Shown: piece after piece, positions 14,360-35,779 of the stretch
Position numbering within the stretch: position 1 is the first letter of the stretch
Layout: every line of letters begins with the position of its first letter
DNA from: Gloeobacterales cyanobacterium
Lineage (GTDB): Bacteria; Cyanobacteriota; Cyanobacteriia; Gloeobacterales; PMM-0068
DNA: 43,061 nucleotides
Reading direction: 5' to 3'
Assembly: GCA_038245785.1 (NCBI GenBank)
Contig: JBBRSB010000037.1
Location: 1 to 43,061 of the forward strand
Notes under the pieces: generated by a model
Told to the model about the DNA's origin: nothing
Seen by the model: only the letters and a program-made list of their open reading frames with translations
The model's database searches: none
Position numbers and translations under genes: made by a program

Positions 14360-14971
14360 CTAATCAGCGTCTCCCTTTCCTTTTTTCTCCTTTCCTCCCA
14401 CTTTCTCTGCCTCCGCTTTCTGTACAATCCCGCAGGCTAGACGTCCATCTCCAGCGTCAGCCGCCGTTCCTCCCACTTTAATTTGGTCCTGGAGCGTATG
14501 AATGATGACCGCCGTTCCGTCAGCATCGAATACCGTGGTAGGACTATCTCCTAGAGAAACGCGACTAGTAACGGTCTGTAGCCTCCCTCTACCCTGTTCA
14601 TCTACGACTAGATTGGGCAGGTCTCCCAGATGATAAGGATGATTCAGTTCAACGGGTAAAGACGAACCAAATGGACCAGGGTCAAAGTGCCCACCTGCCA
14701 CACTGAAGGGCATTGCTCCTGATGCACAGGAACCTACACTATGGAAATGAATCCCATGGGCGCCTGGGGTCAGTATTTTGGGATCTCCATTGACATCTAC
14801 GTAAACACGGACAAAGCCCGGTGCAAATTCTACAAGAGTTGCCTGTCCTAAGATCCCCGGACCTTCAATTTTGACTTTAGCAACGAGATTATCCTCTGCT
14901 AGAACAACGGTGTTCGCGCACAAAACCAGCGTGCCCGCAAGAGAAAGTAGATATCCGATAGAGTGCTTCAT
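14360..14971 (-). CDS. sodC: Cu/Zn superoxide dismutase family protein, exported
   Basis: Signal peptide, HGIHFH, GGHFDP, NHPYHLGDLPNL, IIH, GRLACG. Confidence 0.9.
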   Translation of the reverse strand: MKHSIGYLLSLAGTLVLCANTVVLAEDNLVAKVKIEGPGILGQATLVEFAPGFVRVYVDVNGDPKILTPGAHGIHFHSVGSCASGAMPFSVAGGHFDPGPFGSSLPVELNHPYHLGDLPNLVVDEQGRGRLQTVTSRVSLGDSPTTVFDADGTAVIIHTLQDQIKVGGTAADAGDGRLACGIVQKAEAEKVGGKEKKGKGDAD

Positions 14972-15449
14972 TAGATTTATTCCTCGCTAGTAATTGATGT
15001 ATTGATGCAGACTTAGTCCATTTCTATTAATAGAATTTTGTACTAATCCTCCTAATAATTGGGTCTAAAATAGCGGTTTTAAATTGATCCACCTGCTAAT
15101 AAACGGCATATCAATGAGGAATATACTGAAGATAAACAGTGTTTTATACTGTTCTTATCGCTCGAGCACCATCTTATTCAGCTTTATCTCAAAAAAATAT
15201 CAGTATTCTTACGAATATCAAGTTCGAAAAGTGATGTTAGAGCGCAAAGAGATACTGAATCTTTAATCTTTGAAGAATTAAACAATCTTGACTTGATATA
15301 TCAGCTTTGTTTGATCTTAAAGGAGCGGCTATTTTGTTCCTTTTAATCAATTTCGGTTTGACTTTTTTATAGTAACAATGACCTTCTCCCTAAAGTCTGA
15401 AATCCCACTTAACCTAGGGGATGAAATATATTGCTGCATGCAGAGCTTT

Positions 15450-17750: not shown

Positions 17751-18425
17751 TCAAGCGAAGTGATAGGGGGGAAGCGCTCCATCCAGTTTTAGGGTTCCTT
17801 GGGTACACTGTTCTTGCCATCGCTGAACCTGGGGCAGAAGAGAGACTTCTCCTGCTCGCTCGGCCAGAAGATGGATTCTTTCGAAGCCCTCTTGGGCCTG
17901 GCCTGGGATCACAGGATAGAGGCTATGGGCTTTTTCGATGACCGTTTGCCACTGTGCCTGTTGGGCCGCTTGCTGTTCTGCCCGTGCCTGATGCTGCTGT
18001 TTTTTTGCGAGGAAGTACTGTTTTCCTTTCTGGTTAGTTTCTTCTGTTCCCTCTGTTTCTGGCATGGCGCTGAGGGGATGCGGAATAAATTTCAGGGTGT
18101 ACTCTGCTTTGCCGTTGAGTTTTTCTAATTTGGCTAAATACCGATCGGCATTTTGTTCTAAGTGGGCGAGTAATCCTTCTTCTGAAATGAAACGGGTTCC
18201 AAACCGTAGCGGCAGGACGGTTATTTGCCGAAAGAGATCACAGATTACGCGGTCATGGGTGAGGGCAGCGCGGATCAGCAATTGGTCATTAGTTTCTAAG
18301 GTTTCAAAAGATACGCCCGGTTCTACGATCGCCATCAGCCGCTCGTTGCCAATAATTTTTACCTGTTCTATCATCCCTTCTGGTCTGTCAAATTCTGTAG
18401 GGATTGCAAAAGCGTAGGTATACAC
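17751..18425 (-). CDS. GvpL/GvpF family gas vesicle protein
   Basis: HDRVI, TVLPLRFGT, GKQYFLAKK, C-terminal PPYHF. Confidence 0.88.
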   Translation of the reverse strand: MYTYAFAIPTEFDRPEGMIEQVKIIGNERLMAIVEPGVSFETLETNDQLLIRAALTHDRVICDLFRQITVLPLRFGTRFISEEGLLAHLEQNADRYLAKLEKLNGKAEYTLKFIPHPLSAMPETEGTEETNQKGKQYFLAKKQQHQARAEQQAAQQAQWQTVIEKAHSLYPVIPGQAQEGFERIHLLAERAGEVSLLPQVQRWQEQCTQGTLKLDGALPPYHFA

Positions 18426-19488: not shown

Positions 19489-20114
19489 CTAAAGTTTCTG
19501 GGCCTGGATTACCTGTAGGCTTCCTCCGGCATGGAGTTGCTTTTTACGAACGGTAAATCCTTGCTTTTGCAAAAGCGCTTCCGGTTTTTGTGCTATCCAC
19601 TGCCAAGACGTTTCTGTCTCAAAAAGCCACAGGAAGAGGGCCAAACCAGGCCAGATCAGCGGAATATCTGGCTGATGAAAATCAATGAAAGCGAATGTGC
19701 CGCCAGGTTTCAGGACTCGATAGACTTCACTAAAAATTTTCTGGATTTGAGCAGGCGTCATTTCATGCAAGGCCATGCTGGTGTGCACCAAATCAAATTG
19801 ATCGGCTTCGAGGGCAGTTTCTCCGCGCGTCCCAAAATGAATTTCCCTCTGGGAACACTAGCTTGCGCTGTTTCAATCGCTACAGGCGAACAGTCCAATC
19901 CCGTTAGGTCATAGCCTTCTTCCGCCAAAACTTGAGCAGCTAGACCACTGCCACAGCAAAGGTCTAAAGCTTTTTTCTCTGGGTTTGCAACAAGATCTTG
20001 CAAGGCTAGTTTTCTAAATCGTTGTTCACCGCCGACCAAGAGGCTTGTACTTTTGGAAACCAAGTTATAGAACCAGAGATGACGAAAGGCCCAAGTGCGT
20101 AAGATAGTTGCCAT
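19489..20114 (-). pseudogene. Class I SAM-dependent methyltransferase, frameshifted near 19811
   Basis: The 5' ORF has LDLCCGSG and the 3' ORF continues VHTSMALHE...RVLKPGG. Adding one T at CCC-T[T]C-GAA restores AEKLPFEADQFDLVHTS. Could be a sequencing error. Confidence 0.8.
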
Positions 20115-20117
20115 AAG
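20041..20117. repeat. Left copy of 77-bp direct repeat (methyltransferase 5' end)
   Basis: 67/77 identical to 33468-33544, ungapped. Confidence 0.93.
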
Positions 20118-20123
20118 ACTTGC

Positions 20124-21071
20124 TCACCCCAGTTTACAGTGCGCTTCTCCTCCCGCCTCAATCCAGCCCCGAATCAGTCCAGAGGTTGACTGAGCCGCAG
20201 CGCAGCGACCCGCACTATCGATCACAATCACCCCGCCCTCTCCATTAACCTTTGCAACCAAATACTGAATCCCTGCCTTCGCCGCAGCTTCTGCATCCAT
20301 TCCCTGAAACTGCACAAAATCAGAAATTGTTTTTGCCAACACCGTACGCAAAAATTGTTCTCCATAACCCGTCGCCGATACCGCACAGGTTTCACTGTCC
20401 GCAAATACGCCTGCCCCAATCACAGGCGTATCGCCCACCCGGCCCCAGCGCTTATTCACCAACCCCCCTGTTGATGTCGCTGCCGCTAGATTGCCTCGAA
20501 GGTCAAGGGCAACAGCTCCGACAGTACCCAGCTTCTGGGAGGGCTTGATCCGTTCATGATCTAAGGTTATGCGACCAGCGGCCTGAGCTTCTTTCAATTG
20601 CTTGAGCCGCACCTCGGTAACGAAGTAATCGTCCGGGAAGAGCTCTACCTGGCAATACTTCGCAAACTCGAGCGCCCCATCGCCCACCAGCATCACATGG
20701 TCACCCTGCTCTAGGACATGGCGAGCTAAGGCAATCGGATTTTTGATCTGCTTGACACAGGCCACAGCCCCAGCTCTCAGATTGCTCCCATCCATCAGCG
20801 CCGCATCCATTTCTACTTTTGCTTCAGCATTGAGCACCGACCCTCGACCGGCGTTGTACAGGGCATCGTCTTCGAGGAGGGTCACACAATACTCCACCAC
20901 ATCCAGCGCACGAGCCCCTTTTTCCAAACGTTGACGACCCTGTTCCAAGATCGCAGTAATGCTCTGCTTAAATTCTGCTTCGCTGGCCTCATATTTCAGA
21001 TCGTCAAGGGCACCAGCACCACCATGAATCATCAGGGAATAGGACTTGGACATCGTTGTTTTACCAGTCAC
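20124..21071 (-). CDS. iaaA: Isoaspartyl peptidase / L-asparaginase (Ntn hydrolase)
   Basis: IHGGAG, NAGRGS, GTVGAVA (Thr nucleophile), TSTGG, GRVGD, TGYGE. Start may be the ATG at MSKSY. Confidence 0.95.
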   Translation of the reverse strand: MTGKTTMSKSYSLMIHGGAGALDDLKYEASEAEFKQSITAILEQGRQRLEKGARALDVVEYCVTLLEDDALYNAGRGSVLNAEAKVEMDAALMDGSNLRAGAVACVKQIKNPIALARHVLEQGDHVMLVGDGALEFAKYCQVELFPDDYFVTEVRLKQLKEAQAAGRITLDHERIKPSQKLGTVGAVALDLRGNLAAATSTGGLVNKRWGRVGDTPVIGAGVFADSETCAVSATGYGEQFLRTVLAKTISDFVQFQGMDAEAAAKAGIQYLVAKVNGEGGVIVIDSAGRCAAAQSTSGLIRGWIEAGGEAHCKLG

Positions 21072-21140
21072 AAAGTGATACTTAAAGAATGCTCTTACAC
21101 GGCTGCGTTCAACGCTTAGAAACCGTATGAAAAGTCCTGC

Positions 21141-22859
21141 TTATTTTTCTTTTGCCTTCCTGCGCTGACGCACCTTTTGGGTAACTAGTTGAGGGAGGTC
21201 GCACCCAGGAATAAGCTCCTCCAGTATCTTAAAACGAATATGGTTAATGGCTAGATCTCCTAGCGAGATGTGCTCCGGCAAGTCATCCGCTGTCATTTTT
21301 GCAAACTTGATCCCTTTACCAATTTCGGTGTGGTACCAGGCTAAACCCATGAAGAAACGCTCAGGGTAGGGTCCCCGCTCAACGGTATCATCCATATTGG
21401 ATTCCATCGGCAGCCAGCCAAGGCCAGGCACATAAAACTCCAACCAAACATGGTTGAAATCTGGCTCTAGGGGCAGATGGCGGCGGTCAGGATGCGGGGG
21501 ACACTTGTAGCGCCCAATAGTGCGACAGGCAATACCGTTGAGGCGCGCTAAGGCGAGCAAGACCCCAACGTATTCACCGCAGGAGCCAACCCCACGCTCC
21601 AGAGCAATATCGGGGGTATCAATAGTGGGCTGAATACCATAGGAAAGGCGATCGTAGACGTAATTGCGAATTTTGAGCATCTTCCGCAGCACATTTGTTT
21701 CTGTGCCGATCGCCTCCTTTGCGGCCTTACGAATAGTGGTCGTATCCATCGCCAGGTCATCATCATCTACCAAGTAGCGTTGCTGGAACTCGGGTGGGAG
21801 TGGCAGGCTGTCATCAACATCAGCGGGAGATAGATAATACTTGAGGCTGTACATTTCGATAGTGGCTTTCCATCCCAGTAGGCCGCCTTGATGCGGCTGA
21901 ACCTGATCAAACTGGAAGACCGCAACCTTCTGCCCCTCCTCTTCTTCAATCGTAAACGGATGACCGATCGGTTCAATGTGGCGGACACGCTGACGCAGTG
22001 TATCGGACGGCAAGGCAATCCGCCATTCAACATGGTTGAGGGTCACCGCTTCGAGGGGTAGCAGTTCTTCCACGTAGGATAGCTCCACCAAATAACCGTT
22101 GGAGAGCGTGTAGTGCGCTGCTGGGTTGTGGTGAAGGTACAAAGGATGAATGAAGGTGCGATCGCGGAACGTCAGCTGATAGGGAAATTCTGCGTTGGGA
22201 TCATCCCGAATGTAGGGTTCTTCATGGGCATAGGCAATATAGCAAATTGGTTCCTGCCCATCCACAGGAGCATAAAAGTCAATGCCCGTAGGAGAGGTAA
22301 AGGGCGTGAGCGCGCTGGATTGAATCGCTCCCGTGGCGCAATCAAGGCAATAGACAGTTTGCTCCGTGCGATCGCATACCCACAGCGCCTCGTTAAACAC
22401 TGTCATTGTTTTAGAACCGACACCGGGCTGGGGCAAGCGCCTAACCAGCTTGCCCGTATCACGCTCAAAAACATGGATATAGCCGGACTTCTGACTGCTC
22501 ACGTACACAGTTGAGTCCCAGACTGTGACCCCATCAACCGGATGGGGAAGTCGAGTAAAGATCGTCGGCACTAGGTCTTGGCGATGGCACCAAAGCACCT
22601 CCTGCCCCTTCGCAAACCAGAATCTATCGTGCGAAAGGGTCAACCCTGTCACACCAATCCAGTCTGAAACACAGTAAGGGTTCAAAATGATCGTGTCGTT
22701 GGTGTGTGGATTAATACAGATCAGGTATCCCCGAATCGTATCAACCGTGAGTAAACGGTCTCCATCAGACGTAAGTCCTGACAGGGAATAAACACCGATA
22801 GGGCGAATCATAGAATGTTGCAATGAAGCATCAGGGAACGCGCTTTCAGGCTTCAGCAT
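21141..22859 (-). CDS. Beta-propeller plus transglutaminase-like domain protein
   Basis: N-terminal propeller-like repeats. C-terminal GSCGEY, ARLNGIACR, NHVWLEFYVPGLGWLPME. Confidence 0.88.
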   Translation of the reverse strand: MLKPESAFPDASLQHSMIRPIGVYSLSGLTSDGDRLLTVDTIRGYLICINPHTNDTIILNPYCVSDWIGVTGLTLSHDRFWFAKGQEVLWCHRQDLVPTIFTRLPHPVDGVTVWDSTVYVSSQKSGYIHVFERDTGKLVRRLPQPGVGSKTMTVFNEALWVCDRTEQTVYCLDCATGAIQSSALTPFTSPTGIDFYAPVDGQEPICYIAYAHEEPYIRDDPNAEFPYQLTFRDRTFIHPLYLHHNPAAHYTLSNGYLVELSYVEELLPLEAVTLNHVEWRIALPSDTLRQRVRHIEPIGHPFTIEEEEGQKVAVFQFDQVQPHQGGLLGWKATIEMYSLKYYLSPADVDDSLPLPPEFQQRYLVDDDDLAMDTTTIRKAAKEAIGTETNVLRKMLKIRNYVYDRLSYGIQPTIDTPDIALERGVGSCGEYVGVLLALARLNGIACRTIGRYKCPPHPDRRHLPLEPDFNHVWLEFYVPGLGWLPMESNMDDTVERGPYPERFFMGLAWYHTEIGKGIKFAKMTADDLPEHISLGDLAINHIRFKILEELIPGCDLPQLVTQKVRQRRKAKEK

Positions 22860-23194
22860 AGATCAACGGCTCAGCATGTTTATCAAACAATATAGCCCTC
22901 AGGTTAAACGCCGGTTGCCTTAGTGCTCTGGCCAGAGGACACTAGCACAAACCTAGTTCAGAAGGAAAACCAATTCTGCTATGGACAATACCTAGCGGGA
23001 ATAAGCCCGCTTCATCAGCATATTGTTTTGTTATTCTAAGGATGCAGCAAAACCATCCTGACCTATGCTTATAGAGCCAAGAATTTGTCAATATAAGTGG
23101 TATATGATGAGTCAATCGGGAGCCTTGAAGCCTTAGCTTCAGCAGGTATAACCTGGTGAGCAGCACCTCATCGAAGCGAAGGATACAGCGTTTA

Positions 23195-23428
23195 ATGAAA
23201 GTTGTTTATGACCCGGACAAAGATATTTTACAAATTGCCTTTATCGAAACGACCATTGAGGAAACAGCTCAGATCGCACCAGGATTGGTGTTTGATTATG
23301 ACGAAGATGGAAATGTCATTGGATTGGAACTCATAAAAGCATCAACAAGGATGGATAGTCCCTACGCCATTTCCTACCTCGTTGGCGACGCCAATGTTGA
23401 TAAGCCTCAGCCTAAAACTACAGAATAG
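23195..23428 (+). CDS. DUF2283 domain protein
   Basis: MKVVYDPDKDILQI...DYDEDGNVIGLEL..AS. Confidence 0.85.
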   Translation: MKVVYDPDKDILQIAFIETTIEETAQIAPGLVFDYDEDGNVIGLELIKASTRMDSPYAISYLVGDANVDKPQPKTTE

Positions 23429-23452
23429 GCACGCTATCCCCATTGCAATGTC

Positions 23453-23674
23453 TCAATCGTTTATCCAGGACTCTTTCCCGACCAAATCAATAATGTGGCC
23501 CCTCAGCAAGTAGTCGTTCGCTTCTAATAGCCGCTCAATGTCCTGCCATTGGCGATCTCCAAAATGTCTCCTCAGTTCAAAAATACGCTGCTGCCGACCT
23601 ACTAGGCCTCGTGTGACTAAAGCACGAACCTCATCCTGAAAGTCAGTGATGGAATATTGATGAACGGTAAGCAT
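23453..23674 (-). CDS. DUF4327 family protein
   Basis: YSI..FQDEVRALV..G.V.RQQ.I..L...W..IE..LE.NDYLLR..I.DL...E.W. Start is uncertain (ORF extends to 23752). Confidence 0.8.
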   Translation of the reverse strand: MLTVHQYSITDFQDEVRALVTRGLVGRQQRIFELRRHFGDRQWQDIERLLEANDYLLRGHIIDLVGKESWIND

Positions 23675-23770
23675 AACCGTGTCCCCGCAAATGAAATTAG
23701 AACAACTTACTGACATAGGCTGATCTTGAAGCAAATCAGTGTTGCTACTCACATAATGGCATCTTACATT

Positions 23771-23811
23771 GTATTTTACGTTACGGATTTAACTGGAGTT
23801 TAGGCTAAATT
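23771..23811 (+). promoter_or_regulatory. Putative NtcA box with -10 element upstream of argZ
   Basis: GTA-TTTTACGT-TAC (23771-23784), then TAAATT (TAN3T) after 21 nt. Confidence 0.55.
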
Positions 23812-24141
23812 AAAAACTGCGCTAAATGTAGTGGTTTGCAAGGCTTAAATTTTCACGAAAACACTATCTATGAAATTAGTCTAAAATCCAAATTTAATAT
23901 AGAATCTGTGGCGTCTGTGAATCTTAAGTTTTGGATGAGTGGCTTGGCCATGGGGTGGCCCAGAACACACATAATTCTAAGGAACCTACTCTGGAAAAAT
24001 TGATATTAATTTGTCAGTGCTTCATGGCTAGAAATTTTTGAAAGTAGCTACATCGTGAACAGCTATGATGGGCAAGACCAAATGCTGTAAATCCATCAAT
24101 CGCCCACTACGAAAGCAATCCTGTTTAAGGTTGAGTTAACC

Positions 24142-26244
24142 ATGACTGATTCAGTGCAAATCTTGATGTGTGCCCCGCATCATTATGATGTCGATTACGT
24201 CATCAATCCGTGGATGGAAGGAAATATTCATCGCTCATCCCGTGAGGATGCCCAGGCCCAGTGGAATAAGTTGTACCAAGTGCTGAAAACCTACGCCACG
24301 ATTGACCTGGTTGAACCTCAGCCGGGATGGCCAGATATGGTTTTTACGGCGAATGCCGGGTTGGTGTTGGGTGATACGGTTGTTCTCAGTCGCTTTTTCC
24401 ATCCTGAAAGACAGGGTGAAGAACCTTATTTTCAACAGTGGTTTGAAGACCAGGGCTACACGGTTCATACATTGCCCAAAAGTTTGCCGTTTGAAGGCGC
24501 AGGCGATGCACTGCTTGATCGAGCCGGCCGCTGGTTATGGGCTGGTTATGGATTTCGATCGGAACTCGATTCCCATCCCTACTTAGCCAAGTGGTTGGAT
24601 GTGGAGGTGCTGTCCCTGAGACTGGTAGATCAGCGATTTTATCACCTGGATACCTGCTTTTGTCCGCTCACGGATGGATATCTGCTGTACTACCCTCCGG
24701 CTTTTGATACCTATTCCAATCGACTGATTGAGTTGCGCGTTCCTGCTAAGAAACGCATTCCCATTGATGAAGTGGATGCGGTTAATTTCTCCTGTAACAC
24801 GGTGAATATTGGTCACGTTGTGGTAATGAACAAAGCCAGTGATAGCTTGAAGCAAATCTTGGGCGATCGCGGCTTTACCGTTGTCGAAACGCCGCTGACG
24901 GAATTCCTGAAAGCAGGTGGGGCTGCGAAGTGTTTGACCCTGCGGATGACGGAACCACGCCAAGAGTCTCCACAAGCGTCCACGATCCAAAGCCGCGTCA
25001 TTCATCTTGAAGGCCATTTGTTGGATACAGGGCTCGTGAATCGGGTCTTAGATACGATCGTGACTGGGGGAGGTAGTTTTCAAGTCTTGAACTTTAATCT
25101 CGGCGAGCAGCGCCAAGATGCCTCGGCGGCGGAGGTCAAAGTCTCAGCTCCTGATGCGGCAGTGATGGCTGACATCATGGGGCAACTCATCGACCTTGGA
25201 GCGATGAGTGTGACCGAGGAAGCCGCCGAAGCGAATCTAGAAGTGGTCACCCTGCCGGGAGTAGCTCCTGACGATTTCTATGTGACCACTATTTATCCCA
25301 CGGAAGTCTTGATTGAGGGTCAGTGGCTCAAAGTCCAGGGACAAAGGATGGACGGAGCGATTGCTCTAATACAATCCACTGAGGGAGTAGTTGCCCGTTG
25401 TAAGCTCCTGCGGGATCTAGAGGTAGGCGAAGCCGTAGTCGTTGGCAGCGAGGGAATTCGCACCAAACGCAACGCCAAGAACCTGAAACAGAGCACGACG
25501 GAAGAATTCAGCTTCATGGGGGCTGGGGTTTCCAGTGAGCGACGGGTGGAACTGGTCGTAGAACAAATCGCCTGGGATTTACGCCGGATTCGAGACCAGG
25601 GTGGCAAAGTTGTGGTCACGGCAGGTCCAGTTGTGATCCATACAGGTGGCAGCGAACACTTGAACAAACTGATTCGCGAGGGTTATGTCCACGCGCTGTT
25701 GGGGGGAAACGCGATCGCGGTCCACGACATCGAACAGTCGCTGATGGGAACCTCTTTGGGTGTAGATATGAAAAGGGGCATATCCGTTCAGGGGGGTCAC
25801 CGCCATCACCTCAAAGCAATCAATACCATTCGCCGCTGCGGCAGCATTGCCAATGCGGTGGAGCAGGGTGTACTGCGTAGCGGTGTGATGTACGAATGCG
25901 TCAAACACAACATTCCTTTTTGCCTAGCGGGATCAATTCGGGATGACGGGCCACTGCCAGAGACTAAGATGGATCTGCTGGAAGCGCAGACGGAGTATGC
26001 TCGCTTAATTGAAGGTGCTGACCTGATTTTGATGCTATCGAGCATGCTCCATTCCATTGGCGTGGGGAACATGACACCCGCTGGTGTGAAGATGGTATGT
26101 GTTGATATTAATCCGGCTGTGGTGACGAAGCTGAGCGATCGCGGCTCAATCGAGTCAATTGGAGTTGTGACCGATGTGGGGCTGTTCCTCAGCCTTTTGG
26201 TGCAACAACTCAATAAACTGACGGGAGAATATGCTCAGGTCTAG
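24142..26244 (+). CDS. argZ: Arginine dihydrolase / ornithine cyclodeaminase ArgZ (AgrE)
   Basis: Amidinotransferase domain (YVINPWM, DMVFTANAG, FYHLDTCF, GGAAKC) fused to LOR/SDH-type domains (GHLLD, VSSERRVE, AGSIRDDGPLP). Confidence 0.95.
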   Translation: MTDSVQILMCAPHHYDVDYVINPWMEGNIHRSSREDAQAQWNKLYQVLKTYATIDLVEPQPGWPDMVFTANAGLVLGDTVVLSRFFHPERQGEEPYFQQWFEDQGYTVHTLPKSLPFEGAGDALLDRAGRWLWAGYGFRSELDSHPYLAKWLDVEVLSLRLVDQRFYHLDTCFCPLTDGYLLYYPPAFDTYSNRLIELRVPAKKRIPIDEVDAVNFSCNTVNIGHVVVMNKASDSLKQILGDRGFTVVETPLTEFLKAGGAAKCLTLRMTEPRQESPQASTIQSRVIHLEGHLLDTGLVNRVLDTIVTGGGSFQVLNFNLGEQRQDASAAEVKVSAPDAAVMADIMGQLIDLGAMSVTEEAAEANLEVVTLPGVAPDDFYVTTIYPTEVLIEGQWLKVQGQRMDGAIALIQSTEGVVARCKLLRDLEVGEAVVVGSEGIRTKRNAKNLKQSTTEEFSFMGAGVSSERRVELVVEQIAWDLRRIRDQGGKVVVTAGPVVIHTGGSEHLNKLIREGYVHALLGGNAIAVHDIEQSLMGTSLGVDMKRGISVQGGHRHHLKAINTIRRCGSIANAVEQGVLRSGVMYECVKHNIPFCLAGSIRDDGPLPETKMDLLEAQTEYARLIEGADLILMLSSMLHSIGVGNMTPAGVKMVCVDINPAVVTKLSDRGSIESIGVVTDVGLFLSLLVQQLNKLTGEYAQV

Positions 26245-26437
26245 GGGACGTTGGCAAGACTTCAGGGAAAGCTGGAATTTCAAACCAAAATGATATAGTT
26301 TTTGCAATAGAGGCAGTCAGGTCAAGCTGTTCAGACCTATGTATTTGTTCATGTGCAAAAGATGTATTAACCTAGACTCAATCAAGCTTTGGTTTTGTTT
26401 CACCACAGTGATATGATGCAGCTCTTGGGGTCGTTCT

Positions 26438-27286
26438 ATGCTTGAGATAGAATCTCTTTCTATGGCAATTTCTACTCAGTACCCAGTAATGATTATTGGT
26501 GGAGCAGAAGACAAGGTCAACGAGCGCGGCATCTTGACCGCTTTCTTTGAAAGTGCTGGTGGAAAGCTGGCTACCATCGGCATCATTCCCTGCGCTTCAC
26601 AGGAGCAAAGTGTCCTTGGTGATCGCTACTACCAGATCTTTCAAGGAATGGGCGCTCAAGTACAGATACTTGATATTCGTCTTCCCAAAGAGTGTGATAA
26701 CGAGAGTTGGTTGAACGTTTTAGACAGCTGTACAGGTATTTTTGTCACCGGAGGAGATCAGCAGCGCCTGTGTGATCTGATTGGCAATAGCAAGTTTATC
26801 GAATCCATAAAAGAGAGAGTTCATCTGCGCAAACTCGTCTTAGCAGGAACAAGTGCTGGCGCTGCGATGATGGGTGAAAAGATGATTGCAGGGGGGAGCA
26901 GCGGTGAATCTCCAAACAGAGCTTTAGTCGATTTGGCAGATGGCTTAGGCATTATTCCTGAGCTGCTTGTGGATCAACATTTTCATAACCGCAATCGCAT
27001 GGCTCGATTGCTCAGTGCGATCGCCGCCTATCCTGAGAAGTTAGGGATTGGCATTGATGAGGACACCTGTGCCGCTTTTGAGGATGATGGAACGTTTGAA
27101 GTACTTGGTAAAGGAACTATCACCGTAATTGATCCGGGAGAGTTGACTCATACGAACTATCTTGAAGCGGGTGAAACATCTCCGCTCAGCCTTCATAAAC
27201 TCATCGTTCACGTGTTGAGTCAAGGGGATCGTTACCATTATCAACATCGCTCTGTCTTGCCACCTTTGGCGACGCCTGAAAATTAG
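26438..27286 (+). CDS. cphB: Cyanophycinase
   Basis: IIGGAEDK, TGGDQ, GTSAGA, DQHFHNRNRMARL, GIDEDT. Confidence 0.96.
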   Translation: MLEIESLSMAISTQYPVMIIGGAEDKVNERGILTAFFESAGGKLATIGIIPCASQEQSVLGDRYYQIFQGMGAQVQILDIRLPKECDNESWLNVLDSCTGIFVTGGDQQRLCDLIGNSKFIESIKERVHLRKLVLAGTSAGAAMMGEKMIAGGSSGESPNRALVDLADGLGIIPELLVDQHFHNRNRMARLLSAIAAYPEKLGIGIDEDTCAAFEDDGTFEVLGKGTITVIDPGELTHTNYLEAGETSPLSLHKLIVHVLSQGDRYHYQHRSVLPPLATPEN

Positions 27287-27346
27287 GCTACATTAATTGC
27301 TGCCGATTAGTATATTTACTGACTCGACAGCAACTTACGCTGGTCG

Positions 27347-27360
27347 GTAGTAATTGATAC
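27347..27360. promoter_or_regulatory. Putative NtcA box between cphB and cphA
   Basis: GTA-GTAATTGA-TAC followed by A. No clear -10 element at the canonical spacing. Confidence 0.55.
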
Positions 27361-27532
27361 AGAATTAGAAACTTAACCTGAGATTAAGACCCATATATCT
27401 ATCCATCTCCTATATTCAATGGATAAGCAGTGGGTTCGCAAACTCAGCCCTTCCGGGGCCTTATTTCAAAACTCTCAAAACTCAAGATTACATTTACTAC
27501 ATGCGAGATCAGCCGATGTTCTGCCTAAGATT

Positions 27533-30301
27533 ATGAAAATACTCCAAACCCAAACGCTCCGGGGACCAAACTACTGGAGCATTCGCCGCTCAAAGCTCAT
27601 TCTTGTCCGACTGGATTTGGAAGAGCTAGCCGATAGGCCTTCTGAAACCATTTCCGGATTTTATGACGGCCTCATAGAGATTTTGCCAAGCCTTGAGGAG
27701 CATTATTGTTCACCAGGGTGTCGGGGTGGATTTCTGAGCCGTGTGCTGGAAGGCACCATGATGGGGCATATCCTGGAGCATGTGGCTCTGGAGCTCCAAA
27801 ACCTAGCCGACATGGAAGTGGGGTATGGCAGCACCCGCGAGACGGCAACGCCAGGCATCTACCAAATTGTAGTTGAGTATCAAAATGAGCAGGCAGGGCG
27901 CTATGCAGTAAGAGCTGCTCTCCGTCTATGTCAGAGCATTGTGAATACGGGCACCTATCCCAAAGCTGAACTTGAAAAAGATTTAGATGGCTTGATGAAG
28001 CTGAGGGCTGAAGCGGCTTTGGGAGCAAGCACAGAGGCACTGATGCGAGAGGCAGAAACTCTTGGTATTTCCTGGATTCAGTTAGAGACGTGTGACCTAT
28101 TACAGTTTGGCTACGGCAAATATCAAAAACGGGTTCAGGCTGCTCTGACTTCTCACAGTAATATTTTGGGGGTTGAGCTTGCCTGCGATAAGGAAAGAAC
28201 CAAAAAGATCTTGGCTAATCTAGGGGTTCCCGTCCCGTTGGGCGTTGTTATCTACTCCTTCAGCGAGTTAGAAGGATCTATTAGTCGCTTGGGGGGCTAT
28301 CCGATTGTGATTAAGCCCTTAAACGGCAACCATGGTCGGGGGATTACTATAGATATTCAGTCCTGGGAGCAGGCGGAAGTGGCCTACGACCGTGCGCGGG
28401 ATGTTTCCAAGGGCGTGATTGTCGAACACTATTATCAGGGAAGAGATCACCGCATTTTAGTGGTTAATCATAAAGTGGTAGCGGTGGCAGAACGGGTGCC
28501 TGCCCACGTGGTCGGTAACGGCGTAGGGACCATCGCGGAGCTGGTTGGGCAGGAAAACCAAGATTGCCGTCGAGGCGAGGGCCACGACAATATCCTGACT
28601 CAGATTCAACTGGACGACGCCACCGATGAAATGCTTAGCCGTAAGGGTTTTACCCTCGATACTATTCTGCAACCAGGCGAGATCTGTTACCTTCGGGCAA
28701 CCGCTAATCTGAGCACGGGAGGGACTGCTATTGACCGTACCGACGATATCCACCCGGAAACCGTTTGGCTGGCAGAACGGGTCTCTCGCATCATTGACCT
28801 AGATGTGGCTGGTATTGATGTGATCACGACGGATATTACTAAGCCGCTGAGCGAGGCGGATGGCGTGATTGTGGAGGTCAATGCTGCCCCTGGGTTGCGG
28901 ATGCATACGGCTCCGAGCCAAGGAGTTGCCCGCAATGTTGCTGCTCCCATCCTTCATATGTTGTTTCCACCAGGAACGCCGACTCGGATTCCGATTGTGG
29001 CGGTTACAGGAACTAACGGCAAAACCACCACCACTCGTCTTATTGCTCATATCTTCAGCCAGATTTATGACGCTGTAGGTTTTACGACTACGGATGGCAT
29101 TTATATTGGCGATCACTTGGTGGAGAAGGGAGATACCACGGGTCCGCAAAGCGCCCAGATCATTCTGCAAGATCCGACGGTGGACATTGCGGTCTTGGAG
29201 ACAGCACGAGGCGGTATTCTTCGATCGGGTCTTGCCTTCTCACACTGTGACGTGGGGGTCGTCTTGAATGTGGCGGCGGATCATTTGGGTCTGGGGGACA
29301 TCGATACTATCGACCAAATGGCCAGGCTGAAAGCGGTGGTGGCAGAGGCTGTCCACGTTGATGGCTATGCGATACTCAATGCTGATGATGAGCGGGTCTC
29401 AGCCATGGCGGAGCAGGTTGTGGGGAAAGTTGCCTATTTCTCGATGGACCCAGATAACCCGTTGGTGCGCTCCCATGTTCAGCGGGGGAGAATGGCTGCG
29501 GTTTATGAAGAGGGCTATATTTCGATTTTGCAGAAGGATTGGGTTCACCGGATCGAGAAAGTGGAGCGCGTCCCTCTTACGTTGGGCGGACGGGCACCGT
29601 TCATGATAGCCAATGCCCTGGCAGCCAGTTTGGCTGCTTTTGTTCAGGGTGTAAAAGTCGAGCATATTCGGTCGGCGCTGCGCAGCTTCCGAGCATCGGC
29701 TCAGCAGACACCAGGACGGATGAATTTATTCAACTTCGGCCACTATCATGCGCTGGTAGACTACGCCCACAATCCAGCTGGGTACGAAGCGGTAGGCAGC
29801 TTTGTGAAAACCTGGTCTGGCCCTACCCTTGGTGTAGTCGGGGGACCGGGAGATCGTCGTGATCAAGATTTGATTGAATTGGGTTCCCTTTCGGCGACAT
29901 TTTTTGATCAGATTATTGTCAAAGAAGACGACGATAACCGAGGTCGTCCTCGAGGTAATGCGGCAGAGTTGATCGTCCAGGGTATCCATCAAGTTGCGTT
30001 GGATGCTGATTCTCCAGTCCCGCACGAGATCCGGCTGGATGAGACGGAGGCAATCGAATGGGCGTTAGACCATGCCCCAGAAAATGCCTTGGTAGTTATC
30101 TTCCCTGAAAGTGTCAGTCGGGCAATCGCACTCATTATGTCCCGAAGTCCAATTCCCGATGTCATAGAAGCGGCATTTTCATCAGAATCGAAGCAAGACA
30201 CTTTATCAATGCTAGATACACTATCGCGGAGAATAATAGCAGACCCAGCATCTAATGGCGTGGAAGTTAATGCCGAAATAGCTGTACACTCCAAATCCTG
30301 A
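27533..30301 (+). CDS. cphA: Cyanophycin synthetase (CphA1 type)
   Basis: MKIL.TQTLRGPNYWSI, HYCSPG..GGF, ATP-grasp KPLNGNHGRG, Mur-ligase GTNGKTTT, ETARGG, DYAHN. Confidence 0.97.
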   Translation: MKILQTQTLRGPNYWSIRRSKLILVRLDLEELADRPSETISGFYDGLIEILPSLEEHYCSPGCRGGFLSRVLEGTMMGHILEHVALELQNLADMEVGYGSTRETATPGIYQIVVEYQNEQAGRYAVRAALRLCQSIVNTGTYPKAELEKDLDGLMKLRAEAALGASTEALMREAETLGISWIQLETCDLLQFGYGKYQKRVQAALTSHSNILGVELACDKERTKKILANLGVPVPLGVVIYSFSELEGSISRLGGYPIVIKPLNGNHGRGITIDIQSWEQAEVAYDRARDVSKGVIVEHYYQGRDHRILVVNHKVVAVAERVPAHVVGNGVGTIAELVGQENQDCRRGEGHDNILTQIQLDDATDEMLSRKGFTLDTILQPGEICYLRATANLSTGGTAIDRTDDIHPETVWLAERVSRIIDLDVAGIDVITTDITKPLSEADGVIVEVNAAPGLRMHTAPSQGVARNVAAPILHMLFPPGTPTRIPIVAVTGTNGKTTTTRLIAHIFSQIYDAVGFTTTDGIYIGDHLVEKGDTTGPQSAQIILQDPTVDIAVLETARGGILRSGLAFSHCDVGVVLNVAADHLGLGDIDTIDQMARLKAVVAEAVHVDGYAILNADDERVSAMAEQVVGKVAYFSMDPDNPLVRSHVQRGRMAAVYEEGYISILQKDWVHRIEKVERVPLTLGGRAPFMIANALAASLAAFVQGVKVEHIRSALRSFRASAQQTPGRMNLFNFGHYHALVDYAHNPAGYEAVGSFVKTWSGPTLGVVGGPGDRRDQDLIELGSLSATFFDQIIVKEDDDNRGRPRGNAAELIVQGIHQVALDADSPVPHEIRLDETEAIEWALDHAPENALVVIFPESVSRAIALIMSRSPIPDVIEAAFSSESKQDTLSMLDTLSRRIIADPASNGVEVNAEIAVHSKS

Positions 30302-30429
30302 ACGATTTAGAACGCTTAGGGATATAGATTGGGTTGATCTGATAAATGATAGGTTTGAGGGGTGATAGTACTGCTATGCCCTGACGTTGAGAGGTGAAGA
30401 TTAATACTCATTTCTCAGGAGGCTGTTTG

Positions 30430-33400
30430 ATGATTCTCAATTCATCTCTTTCTAGTTCTGAACCCTCTATTCAGCCAGCGTACGAGGAAAAGACCCAAGC
30501 CCTTGCTCGCCAGCTGCTAGCGGAGACCACAGAAAAGCGCTCACTCTTTGCTAAAGTGCGGGACCAACTCCGCTGGGATGACAAACTACTCAGTTGGACG
30601 ATGGACAACCCTAGTCTGCGGGTGCAGCTGTTCCGTCTGATCGACTGTTTGCCATCTCTGACAACGAAGGCGGAAATTGCCCGTCACCTTCAGGAATATT
30701 TGAGCGATGCTTCCGTGGAATTGCCCCAGGCGCTCAAGAACCTGCTCAATTTTACGAGCCCAGACTCAATGCCAGGGCAAGTCGCTGCCACCACGCTGGC
30801 CACGGCCGTAGAAACCCTGGCTAGAAAATATATTGCAGGCGAAAACCTGAAGCAGGCGCTCAAGAGTATTGAACAACTTCGTAAACAGTCCATGACCTTC
30901 ACGATCGATGTACTGGGAGAGGCCGTGGTGACGGAAACGGAAGCCCAATCCTACCTGGATCAGTATTTGGAGTTAATGGGACAACTTACAGAAGCTTCCC
31001 AGCGATGGGCTCCGGCACCCCAGATGAATACTGCCGATGGGCTAGATTTATCCAAGGTGCAGGTTTCGGTAAAACTCACAGCCTTTTATTCCCAATTTGA
31101 TCCCCTAGACGTAAAGGGTTCTCAAGCGAAGGTGAGTGACCGTATCCGTATCCTCCTGCGTCGGGCGAAGGAAGTGGGAGCGGAAGTTCACTTTGACATG
31201 GAGCAGTATCGCTATAAAGGTGCAACGCTGGAGGCGCTTAAGCAGCTGCTGATGGAGGAAGAGTTTCGTGACCGCACCGACCTTGGCATAACCCTGCAAG
31301 CCTATCTACGGGATAGCTATCAGGATTTGCAGGATTTAATCCATTGGGTCAAACAGCGAAGCAATCCGATCACGGTGCGTTTGGTCAAAGGGGCTTATTG
31401 GGATCAAGAAACGATCATTGCCCGCCAAAATTATTGGCCGACTCCCGTCTACAACCAAAAATCTTCGACGGACGCTAATTTTGAGCGCATGACGCGACTG
31501 CTCCTGGAAAATCATGAGCATCTTTACGCTGCAATTGGTAGCCATAACGTTCGTTCTCAAGCCTACGCGATTGCGATCGCCCAAACCCTAAATATTCCCA
31601 AACGGCACCTTGAATTTCAAGTCCTCTATGGCATGGCCGATAATCTTGCCACAGCCCTCGCCAAACGGGGCCATCGCGTTCGGGTCTATTGTCCTTACGG
31701 TGACCTAATTCCAGGCATGGCCTACCTGATTCGACGCTTGTTAGAAAATACGGCTAATAGCTCTTTCTTACGTCAAAGCCTGACAGAGCATCCGATAGAA
31801 GATTTGTTGGCAGTTCCTGTTTGGGGAGAAGGCGACGAGGACGGCAGCGAAGTCAAACCTACGCCCCTTAGCTTATCGACTGCGACCGTCACTCAAATTA
31901 ATCCCTCAGCGGATACGGACTATGCGATTGCTCAATCCCGAGCGGATGTGCTCACTGCCATGGAGTCTGTGAAACAACAGTTGGGGCAAACCTATTGGCC
32001 GCTCATTAATGGAGAGCGAGTACAGACAGCGACGACGATTCAATCTGTCAATCCGTCAAATCCGGCAGAGATTGTGGGCACGGTCGGCCAAATTAATATC
32101 GAACAAGCAGATCAGGCCATAGCCGTGGCAAAAAAAGCCTTTCACTCCTGGCAACGGACGCCAGCGTGGGAACGTGCTGCCATCCTTCGACGAGCGGCAG
32201 ATTTACTGGAAGCACGTCGTCATGAACTCAATGCCTGGATGGTTTTTGAGGCAGGCAAACCGCTCAAACAAGCAGATGTAGAAGTGTCGGAAGCAGCAGA
32301 TTTCTGTCGGTACTACGCAGCGGAAATGGAGCGCTTAGATCCAGAAGTAGTCTATGACGTGGCCGGGGAGAGCAATCGCTACGGCTATCGGCCCAAGGGA
32401 ATTGTGTTGGTGATTTCCCCCTGGAACTTCCCCCTGGCCATTCCGACAGGGATGACCGTTGCTGCCTTGGTAACCGGCAACTGTGCGCTGCTGAAACCAG
32501 CGGCCGTTACGTCCGTGATAGCGGCAAAGCTGAGCGACATCTTGGTGGAGGCAGGCATTCCTAAAGGGGTTTTCCAGTACGTTCCCTGCAGCGGCTCCAG
32601 CGTGGGTACCCATCTAGTCAAACACCCGGATGTACAAATGATTGTGTTCACCGGGTCGCAGGAAGTAGGTTGTCAAATCTACGCTAATGCAGCTATCCTG
32701 CAACCGGGTCAAAAGCACTTGAAACGAGTAGTTGCCGAGATGGGAGGCAAAAACGCAATTCTTGTCGATGAAAGTGCTGATTTGGATCAAGCAGTGCAGG
32801 GGATCGTCTATTCTGCCTTCGGCTATAGCGGCCAAAAGTGTTCCGCCTGCTCCCGTGTGGTGGTGCTGGCACCGATTTATGATGCGTTCGTGACTCGGCT
32901 GGTGGAAGCGACGAAATCGTTGAATATTGGGAATGCTGCCGATCCAGGCACCAAGGTCGGGCCCGTGATTGATGCAGCTGCTCAGCAGCGGATTCGCGAT
33001 TACATTGCCAAAGGAAAAACGGAAGCCACGCTTGCCCTAGAGCTTCCTTCCCAAGAACCGGGTTATTTTGTTGGTCCAGCTATCTTTATAGATGTTGATC
33101 CGCAGGCCACGATTGCTCAGGAGGAAATCTTTGGTCCGGTGTTGTCGGTGATGAAAGCCCAGAATTTTGATCAGGCCTTGGCGATTGCGAACGGTACCCA
33201 CTACGCCCTCACGGGAGGACTCTATTCCCGCACGCCGTCACACATTCAGCAGGCGAAAGCAGAATTTGAGGTAGGCAATCTTTATATCAATCGCACCATT
33301 ACGGGAGCGGTCGTGGCAAGGCAACCCTTTGGTGGCTATAAACTATCGGGCGTTGGCTCCAAGGCTGGGGGGCCTGATTATTTGCTGCAATTCCTCGATC

Positions 33401-33462
33401 CACGCACGGTTACGGAGAATATTCAGCGGCAGGGATTTGCGCCGATCGAGGGAATGGAATAG
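30430..33462 (+). CDS. putA: Bifunctional proline dehydrogenase / P5C dehydrogenase
   Basis: VRLVKGAYWD, YLIRRLLENTAN, ISPWNFP, EMGGKN, GQKCSAC, QPFGG. Start is ATG 30430 or GTG 30394. Confidence 0.96.
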   Translation: MILNSSLSSSEPSIQPAYEEKTQALARQLLAETTEKRSLFAKVRDQLRWDDKLLSWTMDNPSLRVQLFRLIDCLPSLTTKAEIARHLQEYLSDASVELPQALKNLLNFTSPDSMPGQVAATTLATAVETLARKYIAGENLKQALKSIEQLRKQSMTFTIDVLGEAVVTETEAQSYLDQYLELMGQLTEASQRWAPAPQMNTADGLDLSKVQVSVKLTAFYSQFDPLDVKGSQAKVSDRIRILLRRAKEVGAEVHFDMEQYRYKGATLEALKQLLMEEEFRDRTDLGITLQAYLRDSYQDLQDLIHWVKQRSNPITVRLVKGAYWDQETIIARQNYWPTPVYNQKSSTDANFERMTRLLLENHEHLYAAIGSHNVRSQAYAIAIAQTLNIPKRHLEFQVLYGMADNLATALAKRGHRVRVYCPYGDLIPGMAYLIRRLLENTANSSFLRQSLTEHPIEDLLAVPVWGEGDEDGSEVKPTPLSLSTATVTQINPSADTDYAIAQSRADVLTAMESVKQQLGQTYWPLINGERVQTATTIQSVNPSNPAEIVGTVGQINIEQADQAIAVAKKAFHSWQRTPAWERAAILRRAADLLEARRHELNAWMVFEAGKPLKQADVEVSEAADFCRYYAAEMERLDPEVVYDVAGESNRYGYRPKGIVLVISPWNFPLAIPTGMTVAALVTGNCALLKPAAVTSVIAAKLSDILVEAGIPKGVFQYVPCSGSSVGTHLVKHPDVQMIVFTGSQEVGCQIYANAAILQPGQKHLKRVVAEMGGKNAILVDESADLDQAVQGIVYSAFGYSGQKCSACSRVVVLAPIYDAFVTRLVEATKSLNIGNAADPGTKVGPVIDAAAQQRIRDYIAKGKTEATLALELPSQEPGYFVGPAIFIDVDPQATIAQEEIFGPVLSVMKAQNFDQALAIANGTHYALTGGLYSRTPSHIQQAKAEFEVGNLYINRTITGAVVARQPFGGYKLSGVGSKAGGPDYLLQFLDPRTVTENIQRQGFAPIEGME

Positions 33463-33467: not shown

Positions 33468-33544
33468 AGGCTCGTGCTTTTTGAAACCAAGTCATAAAAA
33501 TAGAGATGGCGAAAAGCCCAAGTGCGTAAGATCGTTGCCATAAG
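33468..33544 (-). pseudogene. Orphan copy of the methyltransferase 5' end (right direct repeat)
   Basis: Encodes MATILRTWAFRHLYFYDLVSKSTSL versus MATILRTWAFRHLWFYNLVSKSTSL at 20114, then runs into the putA 3' end. Confidence 0.9.
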
Positions 33545-34150: not shown

Positions 34151-34776
34151 ACGCTTGGACGGGGGCTTTGGGGATTCCTGTAGGCTATCTACTAGGCTCT
34201 ATTTCTAGCGGCTATTGGGCGGGAAAGTGGGTTAAAGGTATTGATATTCGTGAGTACGGCTCCAAATCAACGGGCGCAACCAATGTTCTCAGAGTTTTAG
34301 GAAAAGGACCCGCCGCTGCCGTTTTTGCCGCTGATGTCTTCAAAGGCGTCCTTGCTGTATTAGCAGCTTGGTCCTTGGGACAGGGCTCGGACCTTTGGGT
34401 GATTGCAGCAGGATTAGCCGCAATTTTGGGCCATAGTAAATCTATCTTTTTGAATTTCTCTGGTGGAAAATCGGTTGCGGTTAGTGTTGGGCTACTCTTA
34501 GCGATGGATTGGCGGGTAGGACTCTGTGCGCTTGCTTTATGGGGCACAGTTGTAGGCTTAACGCGCTGGGTTTCCCTGGGCTCCGTTCTAACAGCAATTG
34601 CCATTGCCCCGCTAATGTATTTTTTCGGCAATCCTGTTAGCTACATACTCTTCGGAACCGTCGGTGGTCTATATGTAATCATCCGCCACAAAACAAATAT
34701 GCAGCGTCTCTTGAAGGGGACGGAGCCTCGTATTGGCGAAAAAGTGAATATAGAATCTAAGCCATCGGATGCATAG
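34147..34776 (+). CDS. plsY: Glycerol-3-phosphate acyltransferase
   Basis: YLLGSI, GSKSTGATNVLR, GGKSVA, RHKTNMQRL..GTEP. Confidence 0.96.
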   Translation: MNAWTGALGIPVGYLLGSISSGYWAGKWVKGIDIREYGSKSTGATNVLRVLGKGPAAAVFAADVFKGVLAVLAAWSLGQGSDLWVIAAGLAAILGHSKSIFLNFSGGKSVAVSVGLLLAMDWRVGLCALALWGTVVGLTRWVSLGSVLTAIAIAPLMYFFGNPVSYILFGTVGGLYVIIRHKTNMQRLLKGTEPRIGEKVNIESKPSDA

Positions 34777-34782
34777 GCATAA

Positions 34783-34900
34783 GCCCTCATCCCCTAACCC
34801 CTTCTCCCAAAGTTGGGAGAAGGGGAACTGAGCCGAAAAATCTCTGTTTTAATTTATGCTCCCCTCTCCCGAAATCGGGAGAGGGGCTGGGGGAGAGGGC
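34783..34900. repeat. Cyanobacterial REP-like double-hairpin element
   Basis: Outer stem GCCCTC...GAGGGC encloses CCCCTTCTCCCAAAGTTGGGAGAAGGGG and CCCCTCTCCCGAAATCGGGAGAGGGG. Confidence 0.8.
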
Positions 34901-34923
34901 AAAAGTCCAATAACATTCACAAC

Positions 34924-35619
34924 TTAATTTTGACTGCCAAATAGTTGAAATTCATAAGCCTGTGGGTGGAGAAAACCATACGAGGAGATGAGTTTAAACT
35001 TTAGATATTTCGCAGTCACAGGCGAAAACGTAAATTCTTGATAAGGTGTCTTAAATGTTTTCAGATTTTTGGTCTGAAATTTTCCTATAGAATTAAACTT
35101 CCCTGTGGGAGAATCATTAGACTCTAGTAACTCAAACTCTTCGATATTGGAATCAGCGGTTTCTGAAATAAGCATAGTGAACTTATCAAAAGTGGCTGGC
35201 TGTTCACCTTCAAAAGCATAAACAGCTTCTTGTCCAATGCCGGAAGAAATCTGCTGCCAATCCTCTTTTCCATCTATAGTTGCAGACCAATCATCACTGG
35301 ATGCAACTGCTAAATGGCCACCATTCTCAGCGGTGAGAAGATTGATCGATTTTGAAATTATTTTTCGGAGATTCAATATTGGAGTCGTGATAATTGGATC
35401 TACTTTAGGAGCTTCCAGAGCGGAAGTAATAGGGGCATTAGAAATCTCCTTCTTGGCTGGATCACTCTGTGGTAATGGAGTTGATCCTTTACCTGCCAGA
35501 AAACCTGATTGATTGAGTGCCAAAATTAGGCCACCAATAGCAGTGATCACAGCGCCAGTGCCTGTAAGTATTCCTGGCAGCGTACTCCACCAATTTTGGA
35601 CCTTCTGCTCCTGCTCCAT
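34924..35619 (-). CDS. Membrane-anchored discoidin/F5-8 type C-like protein
   Basis: N-terminal WWSTLPGILTG TM segment, Pro-rich linker, C-terminal PVTAKYLKFKLISSYG...EFQLFG. Confidence 0.7.
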   Translation of the reverse strand: MEQEQKVQNWWSTLPGILTGTGAVITAIGGLILALNQSGFLAGKGSTPLPQSDPAKKEISNAPITSALEAPKVDPIITTPILNLRKIISKSINLLTAENGGHLAVASSDDWSATIDGKEDWQQISSGIGQEAVYAFEGEQPATFDKFTMLISETADSNIEEFELLESNDSPTGKFNSIGKFQTKNLKTFKTPYQEFTFSPVTAKYLKFKLISSYGFLHPQAYEFQLFGSQN

Positions 35620-35779
35620 CACTTTCTCCTCACGAATGCACACTTGCAATCTGCGTGAGCAATATTCTAGAGATCCCTTAGCGGAGTGGCAATTGACAAT
35701 CTTTCGTTTCTATTGAAGGATTTTTCGGTTTCGCAAGAACAGTTAGAATAGTTAATATCCCGTAACATTGTTGGTGGTT

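Follow-up and report, generated by a model that had tools for sequence, protein, structure and literature searches.

CphA polymerises aspartate and arginine into cyanophycin, CphB frees beta-Asp-Arg, IaaA splits this dipeptide, ArgZ turns arginine into proline with the release of three NH4+, and PutA turns proline into glutamate. Clusters of cphA1 and cyanophycinase with iaaA, iadA or cphZ were described by Sharon et al. (2023) and occur in 32% of 153 genomes having CphA1, cyanophycinase and IaaA (PMC10206079, PMC9974463). Breakdown of cyanophycin to Asp and Arg takes CphB together with a dipeptidase (PMC10206079), and AgrE and PutA convert Arg to Glu with release of three NH4+ (PMC8262935). 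In Anabaena and Synechocystis, AgrE/ArgZ and PutA are predicted to take arginine to glutamate by way of ornithine and proline (Flores 2021, PMC8262935), and their genes are dispersed in ordinary genomes. The present study concerns a stretch of 43,061 nucleotides, called the window (contig JBBRSB010000037.1, assembly GCA_038245785.1), in which the same enzymes are encoded together, within a block of eight genes and 13,350 bp. The block very probably entered the beginning of a methyltransferase gene of the host. Crown cyanobacteria are its most likely source, and with it cyanophycin storage and the breakdown of arginine to glutamate would be regained by a lineage whose own copies had likely been lost.

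Like the clusters of Sharon et al., the block brings synthetase, cyanophycinase and dipeptidase together, but it adds argZ, putA and the genes for a transglutaminase-like protein (TGL) and two small proteins, DUF2283 and DUF4327. A co-occurrence module published by Beck et al. (module 45; 2018, PMC5862535 Table S2) groups sll1049 (the likely TGL), cphA, sll0422, sdhC, DUF4327, cphB and sll1336 (argZ), with an adjacency of 1 in Chamaesiphon minutus and 0.18 on average. In contrast to the block, module 45 includes sdhC, is without putA and DUF2283, and does not have the IaaA subtype of the block, which differs from the ordinary cyanobacterial copy. Table S2 gives no functional or transfer analysis of the module, and the words "cyanophycin", "arginine" and "module 45" do not occur in the main text of that paper. 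Thus cphA-cphB-iaaA clusters are already known, and TGL and DUF4327 were grouped with cyanophycin genes in a supplementary table of 2018. What is new is the mapped insertion, the basal host and the signs of movement within its genus. In the literature searched, which did not extend to subscription papers and bioRxiv supplements, neither TGL nor DUF4327 was the subject of a functional study, and the transferred block was not described.

The features of the block and its borders are given below in coordinates of the window, which are used throughout.

19489-20114, minus strand: host SAM-methyltransferase, full-length copy, 9 bp beyond iaaA on its downstream side; frame broken by one base near 19811
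20041-20117, minus strand: 77-bp direct repeat, left copy; 3 bp plus the first ~25 methyltransferase codons
20124-21053, minus strand: iaaA, Ntn-hydrolase isoaspartyl peptidase/asparaginase (PF01112); open reading frame (ORF) reaches GTG 21071
21141-22859, minus strand: TGL, beta-propeller, beta-sandwich and transglutaminase-like core (PF01841); 572 residues
23195-23428, plus strand: DUF2283 small protein (PF10049); ORF reaches GTG 23156
23453-23674, minus strand: DUF4327 small protein, Ssr1562 family (PF14217); probable ATG 23674, ORF reaches 23752
23771-23784, no strand: NtcA-like box GTA-N8-TAC in the DUF4327/argZ interval (pattern match)
23794-23896, no strand: element of ~100 bp resembling a miniature inverted-repeat transposable element (MITE), with terminal inverted repeats; repeat copies in the genus
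24142-26244, plus strand: argZ/agrE, arginine dihydrolase/ornithine cyclodeaminase (NF052231)
26438-27286, plus strand: cphB, cyanophycinase (TIGR02069); motifs GTSAG, DQHF and GIDE
27347-27360, no strand: NtcA-like box in the cphB/cphA interval (pattern match)
27533-30301, plus strand: cphA1, cyanophycin synthetase (TIGR02068, NF010623); ORF reaches ATG 27419
30394-33462, plus strand: putA, proline dehydrogenase/glutamate-semialdehyde dehydrogenase (PF18083, PF01619, PF00171; TIGR01237)
33468-33544, minus strand: 77-bp repeat, right copy, an orphan methyltransferase 5' end that faces the divergent DUF3119-plsY

The gene order is iaaA(-), TGL(-), DUF2283(+), DUF4327(-), argZ(+), cphB(+), cphA(+), putA(+). 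A first-pass annotation had reported the clustering of iaaA, argZ, cphB, cphA and putA, and all five are intact open frames where it had placed them; TGL, DUF2283 and DUF4327 had gone unmentioned. The block is not one operon: iaaA follows TGL on the minus strand, and between TGL and argZ come DUF2283 and DUF4327. It is made of two sub-blocks that are often found apart, iaaA-TGL-DUF2283-DUF4327-argZ and cphB-cphA-putA. No additional recurrent member was found among 39 loci. GC content is no marker of the block (50% versus 48%), a scan for promoters and terminators gave nothing exceeding shuffled sequence, and the sole match of an Rfam search was a tRNA-His 8 kb off.

Insertion site and origin of the block

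The block is bounded by an imperfect direct repeat of 77 bp, whose copies are 87% identical (10 of 77 bases differ; match E 1.9e-18); gaps of 6 and 5 bp separate them from the stops of iaaA and putA, respectively. No other repeat of this region occurs in the genome. The repeat is the start of the host methyltransferase gene, and the block sits at the 5' end of that gene. In what follows G denotes genomes of a 251-genome set, L loci, f families and X sequencing runs; some L loci are the same contigs as G genomes, and counts of the two sets are not summed. G000 is the genome that holds the block (98% complete), and G001 and G002 are sister species of the same genus. The empty site is present in G001, G002 and the metagenome locus L328, where pdxA, the methyltransferase gene, DUF3119 and plsY are contiguous with a 78-bp gap in each. 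The frame break splits the host methyltransferase copy into two ORFs (19758-20114 and 19489-19791). The gene is unbroken in G001 and G002, and a related strain in run X4 has one extra base at the frame-break position and no break. Of the 10 differences between the repeat copies, eight affect the third base of a codon (p 0.003 if one third is expected there, 0.055 if one half is). This concentration hints that the copies may come from two related genomes joined by recombination, and not through the decay of a single duplication. Among the block ORFs, neither the ORF list nor profile searches revealed an integrase, transposase or conjugation gene, and the block is not a self-mobile integrative element. 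Integrative genomic islands with att repeats are likewise foreign blocks with direct-repeat bounds and an empty site in relatives. However, the block differs from them in having no integrase or transposase, in targeting the 5' end of a protein gene and not a tRNA, and in repeats that are 13% apart.

CarB alone was used for the host tree. The CarB of G000 shares 95-96% identity with that of G001 and G002, 75-77% with family f3 and 69-72% with crown genomes; the tree unites eight members of the order with a support of 100. Neither kaiA nor psaJ was found in G000, G002, G003 or G004, and both were found in G166; we take the lack of these two genes, with a basal position, to be criteria for Gloeobacterales. 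When the CphA tree is rooted on Chloroflexota, the CphA of the order-mates is basal. The host thus most likely belongs to Gloeobacterales. A NifH-family match in this material is presumably ChlL, judged from its motif.

The CphA of the block is only 54-57% identical to that of order-mates as against 82-85% to Thermosynechococcaceae, Acaryochloridaceae and Altericista loci. The first-pass annotation had proposed that single-gene trees be compared with the species tree. In such trees CphA, ArgZ and PutA of the host nest in a crown-cyanobacterial clade, and approximately unbiased (AU) tests reject monophyly of the order for CphA (p 1.2e-4), ArgZ (2.6e-6) and PutA (3.7e-6), on subsets of 30, 21 and 23 rows respectively and under the model LG+G4.

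The cluster is not unique to this genome. All five enzymes lie on one contig stretch in G000, G054, G126, G136, G145, G188, G211 and G228, as well as in L074, L088 and L089; in G220 they are likewise together, with putA cut at the contig end. L088 and L089 have the same gene order without a DUF4327 match. A survey of gene neighbourhoods, as had been suggested, was made on ~150 best matches per gene out of the 251 genomes with a span of 15 kb, and genomes were called block-type or ordinary-type through similarity to the query genes. Rows from genomes without a listed cphA position (9 argZ, 7 putA, 6 TGL) and four second cphA copies were left out. cphA and argZ were within this span in 10 of 23 block-type versus 2 of 112 ordinary-type genomes, cphA and putA in 18 of 23 versus 3 of 115, and argZ and TGL in 20 of 24 versus 0 of 111; cphA and argZ were adjacent in none of 28 near-closed ordinary genomes. 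The carriers' CphA, ArgZ, PutA, TGL and CphB each form one clade that takes in families f1, f11, f17, f20 and f23 and Chamaesiphon, and the sub-groups coincide across the five trees. On CarB, a clade of 14 crown carriers is rejected (AU p 4.8e-4). The block therefore appears to move as a unit, since sub-clades are shared across its trees while its carriers are scattered on CarB.

The empty sites, the bounding repeat, the conflict of the gene trees with CarB and the recurrence in unrelated families together make it most likely that the block was acquired horizontally, probably from distant (crown) cyanobacteria. Several points weigh against this reading. The TGL tree does not reject monophyly of the order (AU p 0.117), although the TGL of G000 nests among block carriers. 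The linkage contrast is partly circular, as genomes were grouped by similarity to the query, and related genomes are not independent. No plasmid match was found for TGL or ArgZ, and no donor plasmid. Finally, we infer that the host lineage once had and likely lost native cyanophycin genes, because other families of the order carry them and G002 is without them.

The first-pass annotation had called the cluster a self-contained, transferable module. Transferability stands, on the evidence of the empty sites, the repeat, the discordant trees and the same block in unrelated families. Self-containment was overstated, because the block has no integrase or transposase and no arginine synthesis or uptake genes among its ORFs, and its NtcA-like boxes need the NtcA of the host. 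In addition, NCBIfam describes the ArgZ cyclodeaminase as nickel-pincer-dependent, and the larC- and larE-type genes of the host lie outside the block.

A storage-and-mobilisation pathway whose genes are dispersed in model cyanobacteria would thus have moved complete, in a single block, into the cyanobacterial order that most likely branched off first, and the empty sites in relatives allow the insertion to be dated. The gene content of this order informs inferences about the ancestral cyanobacterium, so that block copies must not be counted as ancestral.

One apparent cross-order relative, L067 (titled "Kovacikia sp.", 87-91%), was considered as the closest donor and dropped, being probably a misbinned contig of the same genus: its flanks are 79-86% identical in DNA to backbone contigs of G000, whereas the CarB of its bin is at 69%. 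Rebuilding the CphA tree without L067 left the placement unchanged. If it is such a contig, L067 would represent a third chromosomal site of the block in the host genus, near a plastocyanin gene.

Pathway enzymes and regulation

Active-site motifs were found in all five enzymes, some of the residue roles being our assumption. ArgZ, in which dihydrolase and cyclodeaminase domains are fused, passes NF052231 with 1356 bits (cut-off 1025). CphB passes TIGR02069 (283 bits, cut-off 126.6) and has its Ser-His-Glu motifs, whose residues we take to be catalytic. CphA passes TIGR02068 (1200 bits, cut-off 850), is also above the NF010623 cut-off, and has the N domain, ATP-grasp and Mur-ligase architecture of CphA1. 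PutA carries PutA_N, Pro_dh and Aldedh in a single frame and so is of the bifunctional type; it passes TIGR01237 (782 versus 659.65) and falls below NF008869 (687 versus 747). IaaA passes Pfam Asparaginase_2 and falls below the NF007589 cut-off (262 versus 567 bits). It has the motifs GTVGAV, ATSTGG, GRVGDTP and ATGYGE and keeps the Thr nucleophile and the Asp-binding residues, as matched to residues named in PMC10206079. It is predicted to hydrolyse beta-Asp-Arg. IaaA homologues at least 74% identical occur in 23 of the 251 genomes, every one a block carrier, whereas ordinary cyanobacterial IaaA is ~40% identical to it (37-42% among the copies listed). The block IaaA would thus be a subtype confined to block carriers and not a member of the ordinary cyanobacterial group. 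The proposed check for other host copies showed that each of the five genes is the sole full-length copy in the genome; four other PutA matches (27-39% identity) cover the aldehyde-dehydrogenase half only.

The host genome encodes NtcA. Of 23 loci, which are related, 11 have an NtcA-like box no more than 300 bp ahead of DUF4327 (2.1 expected from shuffles); ahead of cphA, 7 of 30 loci have one, against 2.5 expected. No such excess was seen upstream of TGL (0/19), putA (0/23) or cphB (2/29), and across the window the pattern is at chance (6 versus 3.9). In Synechocystis, NtcA peaks lie at the sll1049, ssr1562 and cphA promoters with values of -0.40, -1.48 and +3.12 (PMC5714215), which we read as log changes upon nitrogen removal. 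Host NtcA would control the block through the two conserved boxes. The methyltransferase-pdxA pair, severed from its promoter, would be transcribed by read-through from TGL-iaaA.

Some side observations concern the same genes. In G001 an AstE/AspA-family gene lies 126 bp past argZ (L035:7485-8621), which was not seen in other block loci; its homologue in G000 (49%) is on contig C16. CphZ dipeptidases are of the AstE/AspA family, and an aspartoacylase belongs to the Synechocystis NtcA regulon. L097, L109, L252 and L271 (Altericista/Acaryochloridaceae-type) have a second, shorter cphA-like match (~740 residues, 72-74%) before cphB-cphA. G134, G217 and G249 (genus g80) keep argZ and putA with no cphA or TGL match, which would be a natural separation of arginine catabolism from cyanophycin. 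Ordinary-type argZ-putA-DUF4327-cphB-cphA are clustered independently in L280:4098-14330 and L281 (G057, G038), and ordinary-type cphA-putA are clustered in G247. The pathway genes have apparently been gathered more than once in evolution.

TGL, DUF4327 and DUF2283

The block points to genes that travel with the pathway, and TGL and DUF4327 are two testable candidates. Of the 251 genomes, 203 gave a TGL match and 209 a cphA match, and the two agree in 243 (both present 202, both absent 41, discordant 8), at presence thresholds that may overlook split genes. When two wholly negative families are set aside, TGL is missing in 16 of 17 cphA-negative genomes, which belong to eight families. The structure model of TGL (pLDDT 86; a single-sequence fold with pLDDT 38 was discarded) combines a beta-propeller and a beta-sandwich with a transglutaminase core, and no membrane segment was found in the sequence. 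The best fold match is 3ISR (E 1.9e-12, TM 0.67 over the target, 16% identity), and TGL has the core fold of the transglutaminase-like superfamily with its catalytic Cys and His. A triad of Cys427, His470 and Glu486 is invariant in 40 of 40 sequences; the usual third residue is, we assume, Asp. TGL shares the core fold with PDB 3ISR and the Cys and His motifs with 3ISR and 6G49, but differs from these transglutaminase-like proteins in its N-terminal beta-propeller, its Glu as third residue and its lack of a membrane segment. TGL is likely of the Sll1049/Alr3376 family, as judged from annotation, the synteny of Chamaesiphon with PMC5862535 Table S2 and a matching distribution. Synechocystis sll1049 has a strongly expressed internal antisense RNA (PMC2758717).

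On these data we lean slightly towards TGL being a direct enzyme of the cyanophycin pathway. That it would be a cytoplasmic cysteine amidase or isopeptidase acting on the polymer or its dipeptides is a more specific proposal and an unlikely one. A role for DUF4327 as an NtcA-repressed small regulator is possible, though on balance doubtful. DUF4327 is the sole copy in the host genome, tracks cphA more loosely than TGL does, and gave no lead in structure or atlas searches. For DUF2283, which recurs beside argZ/TGL in block loci, this linkage is the whole evidence. A wider scheme can be offered tentatively, in which cyanophycin metabolism would have two further, unrecognised components, TGL editing or opening the polymer and DUF4327 tuning CphB or ArgZ, and the eight-gene block would have crossed the deepest cyanobacterial split and restored storage to lineages that had lost it. 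If true, a new cyanophycin-acting enzyme would bear on nitrogen physiology and on how the polymer is produced in biotechnology. Three points weigh against such a role for TGL: it is absent from 7 cphA-positive genomes, including the closed genome G008; in the Chloroflexota loci compared it is not within 10 kb of cphA; and published degradation requires only cyanophycinase and a dipeptidase (PMC10206079).

It is also conceivable, at rather less than an even chance, that the transfer is real but that TGL, DUF2283 and DUF4327 only ride along: under nitrogen control, they would serve another function and be retained or lost with cphA for ecological reasons. The sdhC of module 45, which has no known cyanophycin role, fits this, as do the relatives of TGL in Myxococcota and Bacteroidota. 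DUF4327 is absent in all 8 f22 genomes, where cphA is present, and present in some genomes without cphA, and TGL lies within 15 kb of cphA in just 1 of 120 ordinary-type genomes. However, TGL sides with cphA and not with argZ in 7 of 9 genomes where the two disagree. Since genomes of 5-6 Mb are among them, its loss would not be mere streamlining, and the control family TIGR00268 was retained in 9 of 9 genomes tested, 5 of them cphA-negative. Moreover, TGL is near cphA in two unrelated ordinary-type genomes, G004 and G041, and DUF4327 adjoins cphB or cphA in G038, G057, G022, G047 and G065, which represent several unrelated lineages.

Movement within the genus and other origins

Our preferred reading is that the block entered the genus once and then would have moved among its members through recombination of taken-up DNA, a route proposed because the block carries no mobility gene. 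Between G000 and G001, the share of fourfold sites that differ is 0.20-0.35 in six block genes; in 38 backbone genes its median is 0.50 (0.34-0.61). As block genes differ less, the block would be younger than the split of the two species. The MITE-like element upstream of argZ is at the same place in G000 and G001. It has 1 copy in G000, 4 in G001 and 5 in G002, and none in G246 or G033; this shared element, commoner in G001 and G002, suggests that the block may have passed through a G001/G002-like genome. In G002, which is 97% complete, none of argZ, cphA, putA, iaaA, TGL and DUF4327 had a match. Direct delivery by a crown donor to the methyltransferase site, with an independent import into G001, is unlikely. 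In its favour, G001 has an intact methyltransferase locus and carries the genes elsewhere, broken into two parts between argZ and cphB. Against it, the trees of ArgZ (99), TGL (100) and CphB (85) pair G000 with G001 as sisters; the two share the genus-type insert at one position, and are closer to each other than to the nearest crown loci, where 0.49-0.61 of fourfold sites differ.

That the join is an artefact of assembly or binning, fusing the DNA of two organisms, is very improbable. The assembly is in 255 contigs and has 5.0 Mb against 2.8 and 3.5 Mb in the sisters, and X1, the sole run holding the whole stretch, may be the source of the assembly. The left junction has no support from reads independent of X1. 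Nevertheless, in X1 a single unitig of 28.7 kb spans the region at a depth of 58 with zero differences, the two repeat copies are not identical (10 differences in 77 bases, as noted above), and G001 of the same genus holds the same genes. In run X4, from another study, five indels of equal depth (41.1) between 33444 and 33710 fit a related contig crossing the right junction, which gives partial support for that junction. An ancestral, vertically inherited cluster that was scattered in other cyanobacteria finds some comfort in block flanks shared within some genera, in the ordinary-type clusters of G038/G057 and G247, and in cphA and putA lying 8 kb apart in the order-mate G003, but is refuted for this genome by the AU tests, the empty sites and the nesting of carriers among non-carriers on CarB; the first-pass annotation's own counter-case, a widespread, vertical cluster congruent with carB, was looked for and is not what was found.

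Other features of the window lie outside the block. At 34746-35751 there is a Sad1/UNC-like gene, with a palindromic multicopy repeat near 34783-34900. Both are missing in G002 and in related contigs of runs X4 and X8, which points to a second small insertion. An IS5-family transposase is at the contig end (31-1368), 19 kb from the block. A lone gvpL/F gas-vesicle-family gene (17751-18425) lies downstream of pdxA and is unmatched at the G001 and G002 sites. Tandem Cu/Zn superoxide dismutase (SOD) genes occupy 14360-16547, and one of them carries two SOD domains.

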